Made by a program: the position numbers and the translations under genes. 64,000 bases of DNA from Oscillospiraceae bacterium. Its GTDB lineage: Bacteria; Bacillota; Clostridia; Oscillospirales; CAG-272. The DNA is taken from positions 2,762 to 66,761 of the forward strand of contig SVTB01000001.1 in the NCBI GenBank assembly GCA_015064015.1, written 5' to 3'. Positions 3,400-17,948 of the stretch are shown piece by piece. The notes beneath the pieces were generated by a model. It ran no database searches. It saw only the letters and a program-made list of their open reading frames with translations, and was not told where the DNA came from. Numbering within the stretch: the stretch's first letter is position 1; the number at the start of each line of letters is the position of its first letter.

Positions 3400-6264
3400 T
3401 CACTTCCTTTTCCTCTTCAAGAGAGTCGGCATCGCAATCGCAGCATAAGCACATAGACCCAGCACGCCGCCCGTCAAAACAATCATGACCTTGAGATGGG
3501 TAGAGTACACATAGACCGTCGGTGCCGTTCCCTTAGGAGGCATGACTTCGGGAATATCCGATGGCTCGGTGCTTTCATCGGGATCATTTCCCACAGGCTC
3601 GGAGGCCTCGGGAAGGGTGTCCTCGGGGCGCTTGAGTCCCGGCAGTACGTCACTCTCCTCACGAGAGGGCTCGATGGAGCCATCGGCCGTTAGCAGAGCA
3701 TAGTCATCCACCGCCACCGCATCTCTGCCCTGTCCTTCGGGACAAATATACAGATATGCAAAGCGGTCGTTGGGCGCGGTATCACCCAAATCCATGAACT
3801 CCATGATATTGCCGTCAAGCGTGGAATTGTCTGCCCATTTGAAGCCGAGGGCCGTTGCTGTTCCCTCTATTTCCACAACCGATTTGGCAAGGCGAATGAC
3901 CATCCGTGATCCCTCGACCGTATAGAGAGCCTGACCAATGTGCTTCCCTTCCCAGCCGTCAGCCAAGGATTCCACCGAAACATAGTGACCATCTCTGGCT
4001 CGGTTGAGAACCAGATCAAAGCCCTCCCAGCCCGTGGCGGGGTTGTTGTCTGTGTCGATATAAAGGTTCATCCAGTTTTGACCGTCATCCACGATCACAT
4101 CTCTGGCGGTCTCTGCCATAAAGTAAAGATACTCGGCATCTTGAGAGACCTTCGCTGACACAAAGTCGTTACGGCCGCTGTTGTTGATATAGTTATGACC
4201 CGTGAAGTAGCCGTCCTCTTTCCGCCACGCTGTATCCTGCACGTTATCGCCATAAGTCGGGGTAACTGTTTCCCAAGATTCGGGAGCTCCCAGCGTAACA
4301 GAAATCTGACCTCCCGCTTCAGTCACCTTACCCGTCCCTTTAAAATCACGGATATAGGACGCCATTTGATAATAGAAATTATCTCCAAAGCCCACCTCTT
4401 GGCCACCACGGAGTTTCATGGGCTCGGCATCGCGGGAATACTCGGTATTGAACTGATCCACAAACTGGAATCCAAGGTCCGGTACGCCCGCAAAGGTATC
4501 ATACCCGCTGGAGGAATGATTCAAACCGGCAACCCATTCGTTCCAACCCGTGATCATCACCATATCGGGATCATAATATTTCACGGCTTCGTACTGGAAC
4601 GCAAAGCCGAGACCGGCACCCGAATCCAAGGAAAAGCCAAAGTCCTCGTTCTGGATCTGGGGGAATTTGGTATTGAGATAAGAACGCCCCTTGCTGGTGG
4701 TGGGATGGTGTCCCACACAGAGGGCAAGCTGTTCAAAATTGCCGTTCAAATCACGACCGGGACCACCCAAAACGTAACGGAAGGTGCCGTTACGCCCCTG
4801 GTATTCTTGGAGCCAGTTCCAAGCGCCGTCCGCATCTTTCCATGCCCAGCAATCACGCACAGTAAAGGTCTCGTTGATCCATTGGCCAAGCTCCGAGGTG
4901 TCCCCGGCACAGCTTGCCAGGGTCAAGGGCTTCCCTTTATACTGATAGAAAAGCTCTCCGTATTTGGCAAAGCCTGCCTCAGAGTACATTCCGCCGCGGA
5001 GCGAACCCATAACGGCATCATACTTGCCCGCGCTGAATACGCAAATATCGGGAGTGGAACCACCTTCCTTGCGAATGGCCAACCAAGTGTCCAGCAAAAC
5101 TTGAAGTCCTTCAGGATAGTAAGCACCATTGGTAAAATCCAAAAAGACGAAATCCACTCCTGCTGCCTCCAGCTGATAGGCATGCTTGCGGAAAACCCAG
5201 GAATCCACATTTTTATAGTAACCAAAGTAGGGCTCGGCCCAATAATAAGAACCGCTTTCTCTTGGATCGGTCAGATGCTCTTTGAGCCCGTCCAAACCGT
5301 CTTCCAAAAAGATCTTGGTATTATCCTGAATAAATTCAGAGTCCTCTCCCGTTTGACAGAGGAAATAGAAGACACCCACCTGCTTATCCTCGCGAAGCGC
5401 AACGTCCGTAGGGGTTGTGCGGTCGCGGTCGTCCGTGGCCACCCACGTGGAATAGTCCAAAGGCGCTCCCTGCACGTTGGCTTTTTGCACCGCAAGTTCA
5501 CTGTGCTCAAAGGTCAGGTTGTCGATATGACCCTCCATTCCGTCGGCAAACAAGGTGAAATAGCCGGCGGGACGGAGATCCGAGGATGCTTTTGAGGAAA
5601 GAATATCGCCTTGGGCATTCAAAACGGCCAAGGCACCGTTGTATCCGTTGTAGGTCACCGCGCAAAGAAGGGTATCATTTACATACAACTCAATAGCATC
5701 AGCCTTGTCTTTGACGGTGATTTTAGCCTCGGAAATTACGGAACTTGCCTGCACAACTGCTTTCAACCGGCTCTCAGGCTCGGTTACCGTAACGGTATTG
5801 GTGCCGTCCAACGTAAACCAAATACCCCGACGGTCGGTATCGGTGGCGGTGCGAGAAAGACGCACGCCCAGTGAGAGCTTGCCGCCCGTAATGTTGGTTT
5901 CCACCGACATATCGCCGCCATAAAGACCGTAATCGTCTCCCAAAATCAGAGAAGACCCAAAGGAAAAGCTCCCACCCGGCTTACAGGACAGCGTATTCCC
6001 GTCAAAGATCATATTGGTACGAAGAGAGGAGGTTGCCAGCACGGCATCGGTGGAGTAATCGGTGATCTCGGTAGAGGAGAAATCGTAGGTGTAAATCGTT
6101 TGGTTGGGAGTTACCCAATCGTATTCGCGGTCATCACGCTTAATATCTACGGCGGAAAGCGTAGGCTGTCCGTCTGCCACCACGGTCGTAGGGAAGGCAG
6201 TGATCCAAACGGCCAACAGCAACCCCCACGCCACCCATGGACATATCTTGAACTTCTGTTTCAT
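3400..6264 (-). CDS. secreted, C-terminally membrane-anchored putative glycoside hydrolase with an N-terminal ConA/LamG-like domain
   Basis: ORF 3400..6270 (TTG) trimmed to ATG 6264, 7 nt after the upstream stop. Signal peptide MKQKFKICPWVAWGLLLAVWITAFPTTVVA. The centre (VFYFLCQ..YYWAEPYFGYY..AGVDFVFLDFTN) looks like a TIM-barrel glycosidase-like family (DUF5010-like, from memory). NLYIDTDNNPATGW suggests a beta-sandwich. C-terminal TM helix plus KRKRK. Confidence 0.8.
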   Translation of the reverse strand: MKQKFKICPWVAWGLLLAVWITAFPTTVVADGQPTLSAVDIKRDDREYDWVTPNQTIYTYDFSSTEITDYSTDAVLATSSLRTNMIFDGNTLSCKPGGSFSFGSSLILGDDYGLYGGDMSVETNITGGKLSLGVRLSRTATDTDRRGIWFTLDGTNTVTVTEPESRLKAVVQASSVISEAKITVKDKADAIELYVNDTLLCAVTYNGYNGALAVLNAQGDILSSKASSDLRPAGYFTLFADGMEGHIDNLTFEHSELAVQKANVQGAPLDYSTWVATDDRDRTTPTDVALREDKQVGVFYFLCQTGEDSEFIQDNTKIFLEDGLDGLKEHLTDPRESGSYYWAEPYFGYYKNVDSWVFRKHAYQLEAAGVDFVFLDFTNGAYYPEGLQVLLDTWLAIRKEGGSTPDICVFSAGKYDAVMGSLRGGMYSEAGFAKYGELFYQYKGKPLTLASCAGDTSELGQWINETFTVRDCWAWKDADGAWNWLQEYQGRNGTFRYVLGGPGRDLNGNFEQLALCVGHHPTTSKGRSYLNTKFPQIQNEDFGFSLDSGAGLGFAFQYEAVKYYDPDMVMITGWNEWVAGLNHSSSGYDTFAGVPDLGFQFVDQFNTEYSRDAEPMKLRGGQEVGFGDNFYYQMASYIRDFKGTGKVTEAGGQISVTLGAPESWETVTPTYGDNVQDTAWRKEDGYFTGHNYINNSGRNDFVSAKVSQDAEYLYFMAETARDVIVDDGQNWMNLYIDTDNNPATGWEGFDLVLNRARDGHYVSVESLADGWEGKHIGQALYTVEGSRMVIRLAKSVVEIEGTATALGFKWADNSTLDGNIMEFMDLGDTAPNDRFAYLYICPEGQGRDAVAVDDYALLTADGSIEPSREESDVLPGLKRPEDTLPEASEPVGNDPDESTEPSDIPEVMPPKGTAPTVYVYSTHLKVMIVLTGGVLGLCAYAAIAMPTLLKRKRK

Positions 6265-7552: not shown

Positions 7553-7697
7553 GAAATACTCCTTTCGAATTCAAAAAGCCCCGAGGCGCGTATTCGGAAT
7601 TTCCCGACAAAGGGACTCTTCGCTCATATTCAAATACGCCAGTACCGCACGGGGTACTGACACTCCGATATACAATATCGCCCTTCATATCCTTTTC

Positions 7698-7753
7698 CAC
7701 AAAGGTTCTTAAAGAGGGCGTTGGGGAAACTTCTTTTAAGAAGTTTCCCCAAC
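7698..7753 (-). repeat. palindrome-plus-tail intergenic repeat, copy A
   Basis: Perfect 16-bp-arm palindrome GTTGGGGAAACTTCTT tt AAGAAGTTTCCCCAAC at 7720-7753. On the minus strand it is followed by the tail GCCCTCTTTAAGAACCTTTGTGG. Begins 8 nt after the GH4 stop. Confidence 0.7.
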
Positions 7754-7761
7754 AAAAGCAA

Positions 7762-9081
7762 TCAGAAAATAGGATACCCGGCCTTCTCGTGAGCCTCAAT
7801 GAGCTCGTCACAGAGGGAAACGATCTCGTCGGTGGACAGCTCGGCACCGGTATGAGGCTCCATCATAGCAGCCTGATACAAGGTCTCGCGCTTGCCGGTG
7901 TGAGCGGCCTCGATGGTCAGCATCTGAGGATAGATGTTGGAGGCGTTCATAGCAGCCAGCTGGAGAGGCAACTCACCAACATGAGTGGGAGTGATACCGT
8001 TGTTGTCTACGAGGCAAGGCACTTCCACGCAGGCATCCCAAGGCAAGTTGGAGATACAGCCGTGATTAAGTACGTTACCGCCGATCTTGTAAGGGGTGTT
8101 GGTCACGATGGCTTCCATAATATGGGATGCGTACTCCAAAGAACGGGTGTGCTGAACGTTGCCGCCGGCCATCAGCTCTTCCTTCTGCTTCTGCCAGCCC
8201 GCGATCTGGGCAACACAACGACGAGGATACTCGTCCAGCGGAATGTTGAACTTCTCAATCAGGTCGGGACGGTTGGGCTTGATGTAGAATGCGTTATACT
8301 CGGCGTTGTGCTCCGAGCTTTCAGTGCAGTAATAACCCAGCTTATCAATGTAGTCGAAGCGAACCATGTCATAATGCTTTTCGGTGGCGTTCTTCTCCTT
8401 GGCGCGGCGGCGGATTTCGGGATAGAGGTCATTGCCGTTCTTATCCTTGATCTCCAGCAGCCATGCCATGTGGTTAATACCCGCGATCTTTGACTGAGAG
8501 CCCTCAATCAGCTCGGGCATACCCACACCATGCAAAATGGCGGGCACGCAGACCTGAACGCTGTGGCACAAACCCACGGTCTTCACACCGGTATGTCTCT
8601 GCATATAGCCTGCCAGAATGGCCATAGGGTTGGTGTAGTTGAGGAACCATGCGTCAGGGCAAACCTCCTCCATGTCACGGGCAAAGCCCTTGAGAACGTG
8701 GATGGTTCTCATACCGCGCATAATACCGCCGATACCGAGGGTGTCTGCGATGGTCTGACGCAGACCGTACTTCTTGGGAATCTCGAAGTCAATGATGGTG
8801 CAGGGATCGTATAAGCCGACCTGAATGGCATCCACCACGAAGTTGGCACCGCGAAGAGCATCCTTGCGCTGTTCCACGCCCAAATACTTCTTAATAGTGG
8901 CGCGGCCCTGGTTGATGGTGTTGTTCATGGCGGTGATCAGGAGATAGGACTCCTCCAAGCGGTTGGCATCAATGTCGTAAAGCGCGATCTCTACATCGTG
9001 GAATGCAGGACACAACATGGTGTCACCCAAAACGTTTTTGGAAAATACGGTGCTGCCGGCACCCATAAATGTTACTTTCAT
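7762..9081 (-). CDS. glycoside hydrolase family 4 (NAD/Mn-dependent alpha-galactosidase/alpha-glucosidase type)
   Basis: 439 aa. N-terminal MKVTFMGAGSTVF Rossmann site, plus the GLCHSVQ and IAGINHMAW motifs typical of GH4 (MelA-like). Confidence 0.88.
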   Translation of the reverse strand: MKVTFMGAGSTVFSKNVLGDTMLCPAFHDVEIALYDIDANRLEESYLLITAMNNTINQGRATIKKYLGVEQRKDALRGANFVVDAIQVGLYDPCTIIDFEIPKKYGLRQTIADTLGIGGIMRGMRTIHVLKGFARDMEEVCPDAWFLNYTNPMAILAGYMQRHTGVKTVGLCHSVQVCVPAILHGVGMPELIEGSQSKIAGINHMAWLLEIKDKNGNDLYPEIRRRAKEKNATEKHYDMVRFDYIDKLGYYCTESSEHNAEYNAFYIKPNRPDLIEKFNIPLDEYPRRCVAQIAGWQKQKEELMAGGNVQHTRSLEYASHIMEAIVTNTPYKIGGNVLNHGCISNLPWDACVEVPCLVDNNGITPTHVGELPLQLAAMNASNIYPQMLTIEAAHTGKRETLYQAAMMEPHTGAELSTDEIVSLCDELIEAHEKAGYPIF

Positions 9082-16521: not shown

Positions 16522-17070
16522 TCAGGATGCCGGCTTATCAAAGCCGTGAATAAATCCGCTGACATCGGCGGAGCAAATGTCTCCGCCGATTACGCGGTTG
16601 CGATAGACCAGTACATTGGCGTACACCGGCATTTGATACACCTTCCCTTCAAACTCACCGTAATTGGTAACCTTAAAGGTGTATCGGATAACCTCCTTCT
16701 TTTTATACTTGGACAGATCCAGCCCTTGCGACTTTTGTAACTCATTATACCCCGCAAAGATTTTGTCAAATTCTGCGGGAATGGTCACCGTAACGCTCTC
16801 TGCCGATCCTGCGTCTACCACCCAGCCAAACTGACCGAGAAAGCCCGCTGCATCATCGGAACAGCGCACTTTTTCATATTTGATGCTGACAGTCTGGGTT
16901 TCATCTTCTCGACCGCTGACTTGTACGTCCGGATTGACATTTCCCGCCGTGTTGCTCTGCCCTGATGCGTAGGCCGGCACAAAAGCAATCAGCGCCACCA
17001 GTGCGGCCAACGCCACACAAACAATACCAAAGAATTTAATGGTACTTGCACGCATGGAATAAATAAACAT
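16522..17070 (-). CDS. DUF4830 domain membrane-anchored protein
   Basis: 182 aa. N-terminal TM helix. GWVVD..VTIPAEFDKIFAGYNELQKSQGLDLSKYKKKEVIRYTFKV..IGGDICS matches my recollection of the Clostridia DUF4830 family. Confidence 0.75.
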   Translation of the reverse strand: MFIYSMRASTIKFFGIVCVALAALVALIAFVPAYASGQSNTAGNVNPDVQVSGREDETQTVSIKYEKVRCSDDAAGFLGQFGWVVDAGSAESVTVTIPAEFDKIFAGYNELQKSQGLDLSKYKKKEVIRYTFKVTNYGEFEGKVYQMPVYANVLVYRNRVIGGDICSADVSGFIHGFDKPAS

Positions 17071-17199
17071 ATCAATACCCCCATCAAAAATTCATTTTCT
17101 CGGTATAACCTATGCTTCGGCGTGGAATGATATGACAGACTACCGCATTTGCTTGAATCACTTCACCCCAAAATTTCCAATTTGTTGTTTATCTTTTTT

Positions 17200-17473
17200 C
17201 CACTTTCTTTCCTCGTCGAAAGAAAGTGGAGTAAAGAACGCCGCTCAAGGGAGATCTCTCAAGGTGACGCACGCCGCCTATGGCGGCAACAGCGTGTAAA
17301 GAACCTCCACACCCGATGCCCCGCCCCCACGGCGTTGGCTGACATAATACACGCGATAGCCGCCAAAGGCGGCGTGCGTCACGATGGGAGTTGGGTCCTG
17401 AGGGAGAACCGTAGGTTCTATCCCTCAGCGGCGCCTCTTTTGTAACTTTTCTCTCGACGAGGAGAAAAAAGTT
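17200..17473. other. GC-rich, heavily self-complementary intergenic element (candidate structured ncRNA or MITE-like element)
   Basis: Terminal hairpins at 17200-17229 (perfect 12-bp stem, loop CTCGTC) and 17444-17473 (12 bp with 1 mismatch, loop GACGAG, the reverse complement of the first loop). Central 119-nt rod at 17264-17382 (15+6+6 bp plus an apical CGCC/GGCG stem). Nested hairpin at 17398-17428. Only a weak 98-aa ORF overlaps it. Confidence 0.4.
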
Positions 17474-17631
17474 AGTAAGTTAAACAACAATTTATTTAAC
17501 CAATCCTTTCATATGGCGTAATTTTGCAAAAATATTTGAAAATTTTCCATGCAACCCCACTTTTGGGAATATCTTTCCGTATTAGATAGTGGAAGGCCAA
17601 ACACCCTTCACTACAGCAAAGGAGCACCGCT

Positions 17632-17871
17632 ATGAATATGAACGCAGAACAGCAAAGACAGCCAGCCATGAAACATCAAACTCAAAATATCAAGCCCAGT
17701 CTTTCCTACCGTTTGTTTTCCACCAACTGGGGACTTATTCTCGTGGGCGGCTTGCTCGCTTTCGCCATCGGGGCAGCCACCCTTCACAATGGTTACGTTG
17801 AGTCCAAAGCGCAAGAGGTTCCCGAAGTGGAAGTGGAAGCAGTTGCCGAAGCAGAAGCTTTCATCCCTTAA
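17632..17871 (+). CDS. small hypothetical membrane protein (79 aa)
   Basis: AAAGGAG lies 8 nt upstream of the ATG. One TM helix (WGLILVGGLLAFAIGAATL). Acidic EVPEVEVEAVAEAEA tail. Followed by a canonical terminator. Confidence 0.5.
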   Translation: MNMNAEQQRQPAMKHQTQNIKPSLSYRLFSTNWGLILVGGLLAFAIGAATLHNGYVESKAQEVPEVEVEAVAEAEAFIP

Positions 17872-17948
17872 ATTGCATCCTTCTTAATTGATATATTTTT
17901 CATTTTCTTCTTTCCTCCTCAAGTCCACCGAAAATCTCCATCGGTGGC

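Follow-up and report, generated by a model that had tools for sequence, protein, structure and literature searches.

A GC-rich palindromic element in an Oscillospiraceae bacterium is in all likelihood an internally deleted copy of a non-autonomous mobile repeat

Analysis of a 64,000-nucleotide stretch of an Oscillospiraceae genome (hereafter the window, to which all unassigned coordinates refer) led us to a GC-rich intergenic element at positions 17178-17494. In all likelihood, this element belongs to a mobile repeat, non-coding and non-autonomous, that is found in uncultured Oscillospiraceae/Clostridia of the ruminant gut; the window would hold a decaying copy with an internal deletion. Most likely, it is not a dedicated RNA gene. 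Two options had been offered in an initial annotation made from the same DNA, a structured non-coding RNA (ncRNA) and a MITE; the comparisons described below support the MITE-type option and lend none to the structured ncRNA.

The element lies in a gap of 561 bp (17071-17631), as the annotated figure of about 560 bp had indicated, between two divergent coding sequences. On its left is the minus-strand gene of a DUF4830 protein (16522-17070), with 108 nt separating its start codon from the element; on its right, a plus-strand ORF of 79 amino acids (17632-17871) starts 138 nt from the right end. The latter matches no family and lacks homologues in other species. The GC-rich core described earlier is evident, GC content being 0.54-0.64 over 17200-17449 against 0.28-0.40 in flanking windows. 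The accompanying argument, that high GC in a long intergenic region of a Firmicute points to a structured RNA, is not well framed: the 64-kb window has an overall GC content of 52%, and the premise of an AT-rich Firmicute is therefore weak.

Every hairpin and repeat reported in the initial annotation is present, but the interval assigned to them, 17200-17473, proved too short. The true unit measures 317 bp (17178-17494) and forms an imperfect palindrome with 14-nt termini TAAATTGTTGTTTA / TAAACAACAATTTA, closed by an outermost inverted repeat of 14-17 nt. Its left boundary is set by three independent comparisons, with L005, with L026 and with L015, L016 and L024, in all of which similarity breaks off at precisely 17178/17179 (L-numbers denote contigs or loci from other samples, the first set of which was fetched with the DUF4830 protein). 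The right boundary comes from the L024 comparison together with the terminal motif. The left terminus, CAATTTGTTGTTTA (17178-17191, plus strand), is a variant of the family terminus with two mismatches, and the near-identical strain sequence L001 has AAATTGTTGTTT at this position; the right terminus (17481-17494, minus strand) is a perfect inverted copy of the family terminus. Across the window, the 14-nt terminus occurs four times at up to two mismatches, compared with 0.3 occurrences expected by chance. Two of these occurrences are the ends of the element, and the remaining two are apparently fortuitous. No second copy of the element was found elsewhere in the 64 kb. The only ORFs that overlap it are spurious ones of 55 and 98 amino acids.

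Each arm of the palindrome contains the same succession of parts. The left terminal hairpin (17200-17229), recovered by inverted-repeat search, by folding and in the arm copies, has the perfect 12-bp stem ascribed to it, and the related right hairpin (17444-17473) pairs at 11 of 12 positions, with one C/A mismatch on the plus strand. The loops, ctcgtc and gacgag, are reverse complements of each other as had been noticed, and the terminal inverted repeat to which they belong extends over 17204-17225 and 17448-17469 with 86% complementarity. Next comes a second hairpin, which we refer to as hairpin 2. In the left arm only a remnant is left at 17239-17263, its 3' half being gone; in the right arm it occupies 17398-17428 (CTGAGGGA...TCCCTCAG) with an extra inner GAACC/GGTTC hairpin, and is the nested hairpin of the earlier description. 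The GC-rich inner segments of the left arm (17264-17298, including the local palindrome GCCGCCTATGGCGGC) and of the right arm (17348-17382) pair with each other, and the inner rod as a whole has arms 17256-17298 and 17348-17390 complementary at 84%. Within the left inner segment, GTGACGCACGCCGCC...GGCGGCAACAGCGTGT is identical in L003, L004, L005, L015 and L016 except for the 3-nt loop of L016. The alternative pairing proposed earlier can likewise be drawn (17239-17250 with 17422-17433, 83% complementary); as for the mutually exclusive structures deduced from it, they are a by-product of local palindromes within long inverted arms.

A metagenome scan revealed the full-length form of the element; L024 carries it in its entirety (832-1420) in the spacer that separates recG from an amidase gene. 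This form is about 580-590 bp long and consists of two inverted arms of about 197 nt each and a centre of about 205 nt. Each arm starts with the terminus TAAATTGTTGTTTA, followed by the conserved hairpin, the second hairpin and the GC-rich segment. The two arms of L024 are complementary to each other at 75%, and the inversion spans 197 nt there as compared with about 150 nt in the window copy. The centre contains a conserved 29-mer and is flanked by a perfect inverted repeat of at least 31 nt, CGCCCCCACGGCGGAGCGCCTCGGGGCTCATC. The ORFs of the L024 element, only 61-105 amino acids long, lie over each other on the two strands of the palindrome, and none of them is credible. The long form matches no Rfam family, and its fold z-scores are -21 and -18 on the two strands.

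The long form also occupies the window's own locus in another strain (assembly GCA_045590235.1). One contig of this assembly, L001, covers the left flank and the left arm up to 17319; another, L083, covers the centre, the right arm and then a right flank 100% identical to that of the window. L003 and L004 likewise carry the long form at the window locus, and L083 supports its presence there independently of these two. The long form has two copies of the hexamer ACGGCG, one in each arm and close to its inner end: the left arm reads ...CCCCCACGGCG/GAGCGCC (L003, L005 and L024) and the right arm ...GTGAACGGCG/TTGGCTGAC (L024 1270-1279 and L083 275-284). The window copy is devoid of about 265 bp between these two microhomologies, that is, of the inner arm ends and the centre of about 205 nt, and a single ACGGCG is left at the deletion junction (17329-17334). 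Such a loss would be explained by slippage from one ACGGCG copy to the other at the tip of the hairpin. With the tip deleted, the 119-nt rod of the initial annotation is simply the remainder of the two arms.

Smaller losses are seen as well. Alignments with L005, L015 and L016 show that the window copy lacks 19 nt corresponding to the 3' half of the left hairpin 2, a loss which took place in the same lineage as the central deletion. In L083, in turn, 20 nt are missing from the right hairpin 2. All differences between the window and L083, four SNPs and the 20-nt indel, fall inside the element, and there are none in 146 nt of flank; judged from this alignment, the element appears to decay faster than its flank.

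Copies of the element were found in a number of other contigs. Wherever L002, L025, L027 and L028 cover the element they do not differ from the window, and L026 is nearly identical. In L003 and L004 the left flank is 99.9% identical to that of the window, but the match extends only as far as 17334, with one SNP 11 nt before the junction, continuing thereafter with a different sequence, GAGCGCCTCGGGGCTCATCGACGTG... This sequence led us to L005, a contig with genes for a terminase large subunit (TerL) and a P22-like portal protein, which is 86% identical to the window over 17179-17334 and has no match to it in the rest of the contig. Arms situated at contig ends adjoin dnaE in L015 (an Oscillospiraceae MAG) and a potA-like ABC ATPase gene in L016 (Clostridia MAG RGIG3848). 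L026 carries the window's short element and right flank but has a cysK left flank, with the switch exactly at the element boundary; it could be an assembly chimera formed through the repeat. In every comparison, homology begins at TAAATTGTTGTTTA and at the same base. Altogether, the arm copies have at least six different flanking contexts, their unrelated neighbours including dnaE, the potA-like ABC ATPase gene, cysK, amidase/recG and a phage terminase/portal module. The copies occupy AT-rich, promoter-proximal intergenic DNA by unrelated genes, and a phage. At least two elements with these termini are present in MAG RGIG3848 (L007 and L016). In about nine assemblies, short-read contigs end within the element, as is expected of a repeat or palindrome.

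Scanning a genome collection for the arm pattern gave 14 matches, of which only L015 and L016 are real, the other 12 (including L020) being chance matches in GC-rich Actinobacteria and similar organisms. In scans of viral contigs only L005 is real, and 31 matches to the 18-mer terminus were chance occurrences in AT-rich phage genes. BLAST of the window copy against plasmids and phages gave no match, and that of the long form gave one, of 44 nt, to MT837065.1. This record carries a homologous two-hairpin module as well as a T-box leader, and because of the leader it is probably bacterial.

Next, we turned to the site of insertion. AATT adjoins both ends of every copy, that of the window included. 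One pair of empty and filled sites was obtained, for a sister element with the same termini: the amidase/ymdB junction reads GTGTAAATTTATCT in L007/L008 and GTGTAAATT[GTTGTTTA...TAAACAAC]AATTTATCT in L038, where the amidase stop codon TAA falls within the terminus. Insertion took place at the palindromic TAAATTTA, with AATT on both sides. As read from these sequences, the pair would fit a duplication of AATT within the target TAAATTTA, and it would fit equally well a model with no duplication, in which an element ending in AATT is inserted 3' of AATT. Multiple copies with target-site duplications had been named at the outset as the observation that would speak for a MITE and against an RNA gene; this is in large part what was found. 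No empty site for the window locus was found with either DUF4830 homologues, since gene neighbours differ in the relatives, or the 79-aa ORF. Likewise, no autonomous insertion sequence with the same termini and no transposase was found in the 64-kb window or the fetched loci.

The terminus is not confined to this element. The same 14 nt begin about 30 further distinct modules in related MAGs and loci, each composed of the terminus and at least one GC-rich hairpin, with interiors that are otherwise unrelated. They include a solitary unit with the terminus at one end and the inverted copy at the other (L007 6829-7041), a nested set of terminus-bounded modules (L038 2207-2635) and a tandem array with a period of 88 nt and 2.7 copies (L041 1330-1566). 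An extra unit of about 90 nt precedes the left arm in L015, L016 and L024. The recG/amidase and amidase/ymdB spacers harbour different family members in different species, and an element with these termini lies upstream of recG in every related species examined. The modules have no match to Rfam and contain no tRNA. A literature search did not find the terminal motif and returned nothing relevant on Clostridial or rumen MITEs; the family appears to be undescribed.

We propose that the element would be mobilised in trans by a presumed enzyme, for which no candidate gene was found in the fetched loci. This might be a DDE transposase making a 4-bp staggered cut at AATT. Alternatively, a HUH/RAYT-like enzyme might act on the terminus and hairpin in single-stranded DNA, a model in favour of which only 14 nt are kept as sequence while the adjacent hairpin is kept as structure. 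Ends of the classic IS200/IS605 type are made less likely by the inverted orientation seen here. A bolder claim, which we consider rather unlikely, is that TAAATTGTTGTTTA defines a new Clostridial superfamily of hairpin modules that are moved by an enzyme, perhaps HUH/RAYT-like, and target a palindromic TAAATTTA regenerated by the module ends themselves, or else that the form of about 590 nt is a functional RNA or an invertible DNA device. If true, the self-regenerated target would explain why mosaics are nested and tandem and why unrelated cassettes are replaced at orthologous sites.

The positions of some copies raise the question of host function. The start codons or ribosome-binding sites of cysK, dnaE and recG are only 16-45 nt from copies, and these genes would therefore have to be transcribed from within or through the element. 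This, along with the occurrence upstream of recG and the amidase stop codon inside the terminus of L038, would be consistent with a cis-regulator of REP/BIME-like type exapted by the host, whether it served as a structured 5'-UTR, stabilised mRNA, bound a protein at its palindrome or supplied an outward promoter to the adjacent divergent genes. The unrelated interiors at orthologous sites, however, argue against a conserved regulatory sequence. Furthermore, the window copy keeps distances of 108 and 138 nt from its neighbours, neither a sigma-70-type promoter nor an intrinsic terminator was detected in 16900-17900, and long- and short-form strains coexist with near-identical flanks, suggesting that the deletion is tolerated. 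We regard such exaptation as improbable. The end hairpins were also considered as terminators and rejected, the T-run standing before the stem and not after it and the terminator scan finding none. Correia, ERIC and REP elements are known to be transcribed in UTRs (PMC10969869). The elements described here are probably often transcribed within UTRs too, by co-transcription and not as RNA genes, and the window copy may be co-transcribed with its neighbouring genes and may affect them, as do other bacterial MITE/REP elements.

The same data bear on a stand-alone structured ncRNA gene, according to which the long form would be an ornate RNA of about 590 nt shared by hosts and phages and the window copy its truncated variant. 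Its fold is extremely stable: the plus strand of the window element reaches -149.2 kcal/mol (z = -11.8), with 0 of 200 shuffles as good. The opposite strand folds equally well, however (-150.5 kcal/mol, z = -10.3, again 0 of 200 shuffles), and we infer that the predicted fold is an automatic consequence of the long inverted arms and no evidence for an RNA gene. Long-range pairing of the arms is without strand bias, G:T versus A:C mismatches numbering 2 versus 8 in the window and 8 versus 5 in L024; a G:U bias in favour of an RNA is thus lacking. A near-continuous duplex of about 197 bp is, moreover, typical of transposon arms and unlike known ornate RNAs.

Local structure behaves differently from the long-range fold. 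The stem of the terminal hairpin is 98.6% paired across six distinct arm copies. Six of its 12 pairs carry changes in both partners, and the two changes that affect one partner only are U-G when read on the terminus-forward strand. The covariation score was reached by no shuffle, the six distinct arms being few and related sequences. For this calculation 30-mers of equal length were aligned by hand, the automatic MAFFT alignment of the arms having misregistered the hairpins, and covariation of the local hairpins relies on only 6-7 arm copies. The terminal hairpin is clearly maintained. Terminus-proximal hairpins are, in addition, slightly more stable on the forward strand (19 cases versus 8), which is weak evidence because the units are related to one another. 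The bias is seen in both arms, and as these are on opposite strands no one transcript can account for it; it would be expected if each end were recognised on the strand it occupies. Another possible source of such a bias is the templated correction that quasi-palindromes undergo in replication. The local covariation fits selection on structure in single-stranded DNA or RNA, so that some structural function is conceivable.

The absence of a known RNA family, recorded in the initial annotation, was borne out by the search with Rfam 15. Nothing matched at the gathering threshold across the whole window or in any relative, and even at E <= 10 the interval 17000-17700 gave no family match, only hairpin look-alikes. 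The best sub-threshold matches among the window and relatives were MIR473 (E = 0.09) and Thermales-rpoB (26 bits, compared with a gathering score of 77). ROOL and GOLLD, both of them Rfam families, are large ornate bacterial ncRNAs known from phages and from gut and rumen metagenomes. The long form resembles them in its size of about 590 nt, in its occurrence in rumen/gut Clostridia and phage, in being GC-rich and in being highly structured, but it matches no Rfam model, forms one long duplex instead of a multi-domain fold and shows no strand asymmetry. Several other identities were rejected. No RT gene or other partner gene that would indicate a retron lies near the element, nor does any partner gene of a T-box or riboswitch; a tRNA-like nature was dismissed, no tRNAs being found, and so was an integron attC, the GTTRRRY-like match at the junction being imperfect and situated at the stem apex and not at its base.

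Apart from the stable fold and the maintained hairpin, an RNA gene could draw on the conserved 29-mer of the centre and on a consensus TTGACA-17-TATAAT promoter in the L005 phage contig, which ends about 12 nt upstream of the element and reads into it. In 16900-17900 of the window no promoter or terminator was detected, however, copies decay by losing hairpin halves and the entire centre, and relatives have unrelated interiors at orthologous sites. We consider a dedicated ncRNA gene highly improbable.

An invertible DNA switch, whose centre of about 205 nt would have been flipped via the inner arm ends and then lost in the window copy, might be read from the opposite orientation of the centre relative to the arms in L024 as against L083, L003 and L005, from the long perfect inverted repeat around the centre and from the breaking of contigs at that repeat, but it is scarcely credible: no recombinase gene adjoins any copy, the centre has no conserved promoter, both orientations occur among different copies but were not seen at one and the same locus, the window copy is without the centre entirely, and one historical inversion by homologous recombination explains the data. 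The inversion as such is suggested by the L083 centre, which is 73% identical over 188 columns to the reverse complement of the L024 centre (score 167 versus 28), and presupposes that left and right arms can be distinguished, the arm of L005 being 84.6% identical to the left arm of L024 and 71.7% to its right arm.

With the mobile repeat as the preferred explanation, we compared the element with known systems. It resembles prokaryotic MITEs such as Correia/NEMIS, ERIC, Coxiella QMITE and Chunjie (PMC10969869; PMC2229807) in being non-coding with terminal inverted repeats, in residing at AT-rich intergenic sites at several loci, often in UTRs of neighbouring genes, in having size-variable and truncated copies and short flanking direct repeats (here AATT), and in that its transcripts would fold into very stable stem-loops. 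It differs by its GC-rich core (54-64% GC), typical MITEs being AT-rich, by arms of about 197 nt instead of the usual terminal inverted repeats (TIRs) of 4-30 bp, and by a long form of about 590 bp compared with the usual size below 500 bp (the window copy has 317 bp), these values for MITE size, TIR length and AT-richness being typical ones and not strict criteria (PMC10969869). Furthermore, only the 14-nt tips are common to the subfamilies of the present element, and no parent insertion sequence is known.

BIMEs are mosaics of REP sequences in enterobacteria. Relatives of our element (L038 and L041) share with BIMEs and REPINs a mosaic, nested and tandem arrangement in extragenic DNA. REPINs, which are mobilised by RAYT transposases (PMC3116915), are also hairpins of two inverted halves, each half composed of a short conserved motif followed by a palindrome with a covarying stem. 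The element, however, lacks a REP head of the GTAG type, its head being TAAATTGTTGTTTA; units of its family measure 90-600 nt as compared with 20-40 nt for REPs; it belongs to Clostridia and not to Proteobacteria; and its copy number is apparently low (one in 64 kb), with no RAYT gene seen at the fetched loci. The ends of IS200/IS605 elements are not inverted repeats, and both of their hairpins lie on the same strand. PATEs derived from IS200/IS605 likewise have subterminal hairpins beside a short conserved flank motif, and their insertion beside a short specific target, possibly without true duplication, would fit our empty-site data. The element differs from them in its inverted termini and in its loops, which are reverse complements and therefore testify to a true inverted orientation.

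Taken together, we assign the element to a new family within a known kind, the non-autonomous palindromic interspersed repeats, and to no named family; its atypical size, TIR length and GC content and the missing GTAG head are the reasons for filing it outside the named ones. By analogy, it would work like a prokaryotic MITE or a giant repeat of REPIN/BIME type. Its recognition removes a tempting false positive, since what underlies both the extreme fold energy and the alternative structures is in all likelihood a palindromic repeat in decay, and neither a riboswitch nor a new RNA gene. This matters for MAG quality, for studies of genome plasticity and for ncRNA screens that start from GC-rich or highly structured intergenic DNA. 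In uncultured ruminant-gut Oscillospiraceae, the activity of the family suffices for strains to be unlike at a single locus, for the 5' regions of the housekeeping genes recG, dnaE and cysK to be occupied, for a copy to appear in a phage and for short-read assemblies to break.

Window positions 17335-17494 differ from positions 281-420 of L083, which carries the long form at the same locus in another strain, by four SNPs and a 20-nt indel. All these changes lie inside the element, and the 146-nt flank shows 0 differences between the two. Half of one local hairpin is missing in the window copy and likewise in L083, in different arms. This pattern of differences suggests mutagenesis driven by hairpins.

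The long form also varies in the orientation of its ~205-nt centre. Relative to the distinguishable arms, the centre in L024 (1033-1232), a contig with a complete long form, is oriented oppositely to that in the window-locus long form (L083 36-236) and in the phage contig L005 (5586-5662), the segments compared also including L003 1-27. A perfect inverted repeat of at least 31 nt is present on both sides of the centre. The opposite orientations could be a product of inversion, past or ongoing.

The element is a systematic breaker of assemblies in these MAGs. Ends of short-read contigs from many independent assemblies fall inside it (L001, L003, L004, L005, L015, L016, L027, L028 and L083), most of them stopping where the inner ends of the arms form a perfect palindrome. 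Positions 1-340 of contig L026 comprise the short element and the same right flank as in the window, with cysK as left neighbour instead, at a distance of only 28 nt from the end of the element. This arrangement is either a second short copy, the product of two copies having recombined, or a chimera created in assembly. Downstream of the element in the window lies a 79-aa ORF (17632-17871), annotated as 67 aa in the NCBI Ruminococcaceae MAG P0241. It contains a hydrophobic stretch, Pfam gave no match to it, and no homologue was found outside its own species; it may or may not be a genuine gene.

In the phage contig L005 (IMGVR_UViG_3300029305_010985; 5340-5400) the element copy adjoins the terminase/portal module, and a consensus promoter (TTGACA-17-TATAAT), ending ~12 nt before the element, is directed into it. 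L052 (MT837065.1; regions of note 4519-4769 and 7654-8290), a 'Bacteriophage sp.' record from human faeces, is probably of bacterial origin, because a T-box leader (102 bits) is present in it. At its end lies a 470-bp direct repeat with two-hairpin modules that share homology with the element's outer arm and are arranged as hairpin - TGGCGTTCTTTGGT - AACTTTCTGCCGCTATTGGCAGAAAGTT.

In units of ~89 nt, the terminus is joined to a short hairpin whose stem covaries (GCGGGC/GCCCGC, CCACC/GGTGG and GCCGGC/GCCGGC) and to ~60 further nt. These units form direct tandem arrays as well as mirrored arms flanking other elements (L041 959-1566, L038 2207-2635; both contigs from the related set), TRF reporting period 88 and 2.7 copies at L041 1330-1566. 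L015, L016 and L024 each have one such unit before their left arm.

The stop codon of the amidase gene, TAA, doubles as bases 1-3 of the element's terminus or of the target site (GTG TAA ATT...) at L038 2200-2212 and L007 7715-7730. The preferred target TAAATTTA can thus overlap a gene end non-destructively.

In all orthologous recG/amidase and amidase/ymdB spacers of related MAGs, modules are bounded by TAAATTGTTGTTTA (L007 6829-7041; L024 745-1420; L038 1235-1447 and 2207-2635; L046 1361-1532 and 2206-2452; L048; L049), and their interiors are unrelated between species. These spacer cassettes look as if they had been replaced while their termini stayed fixed.
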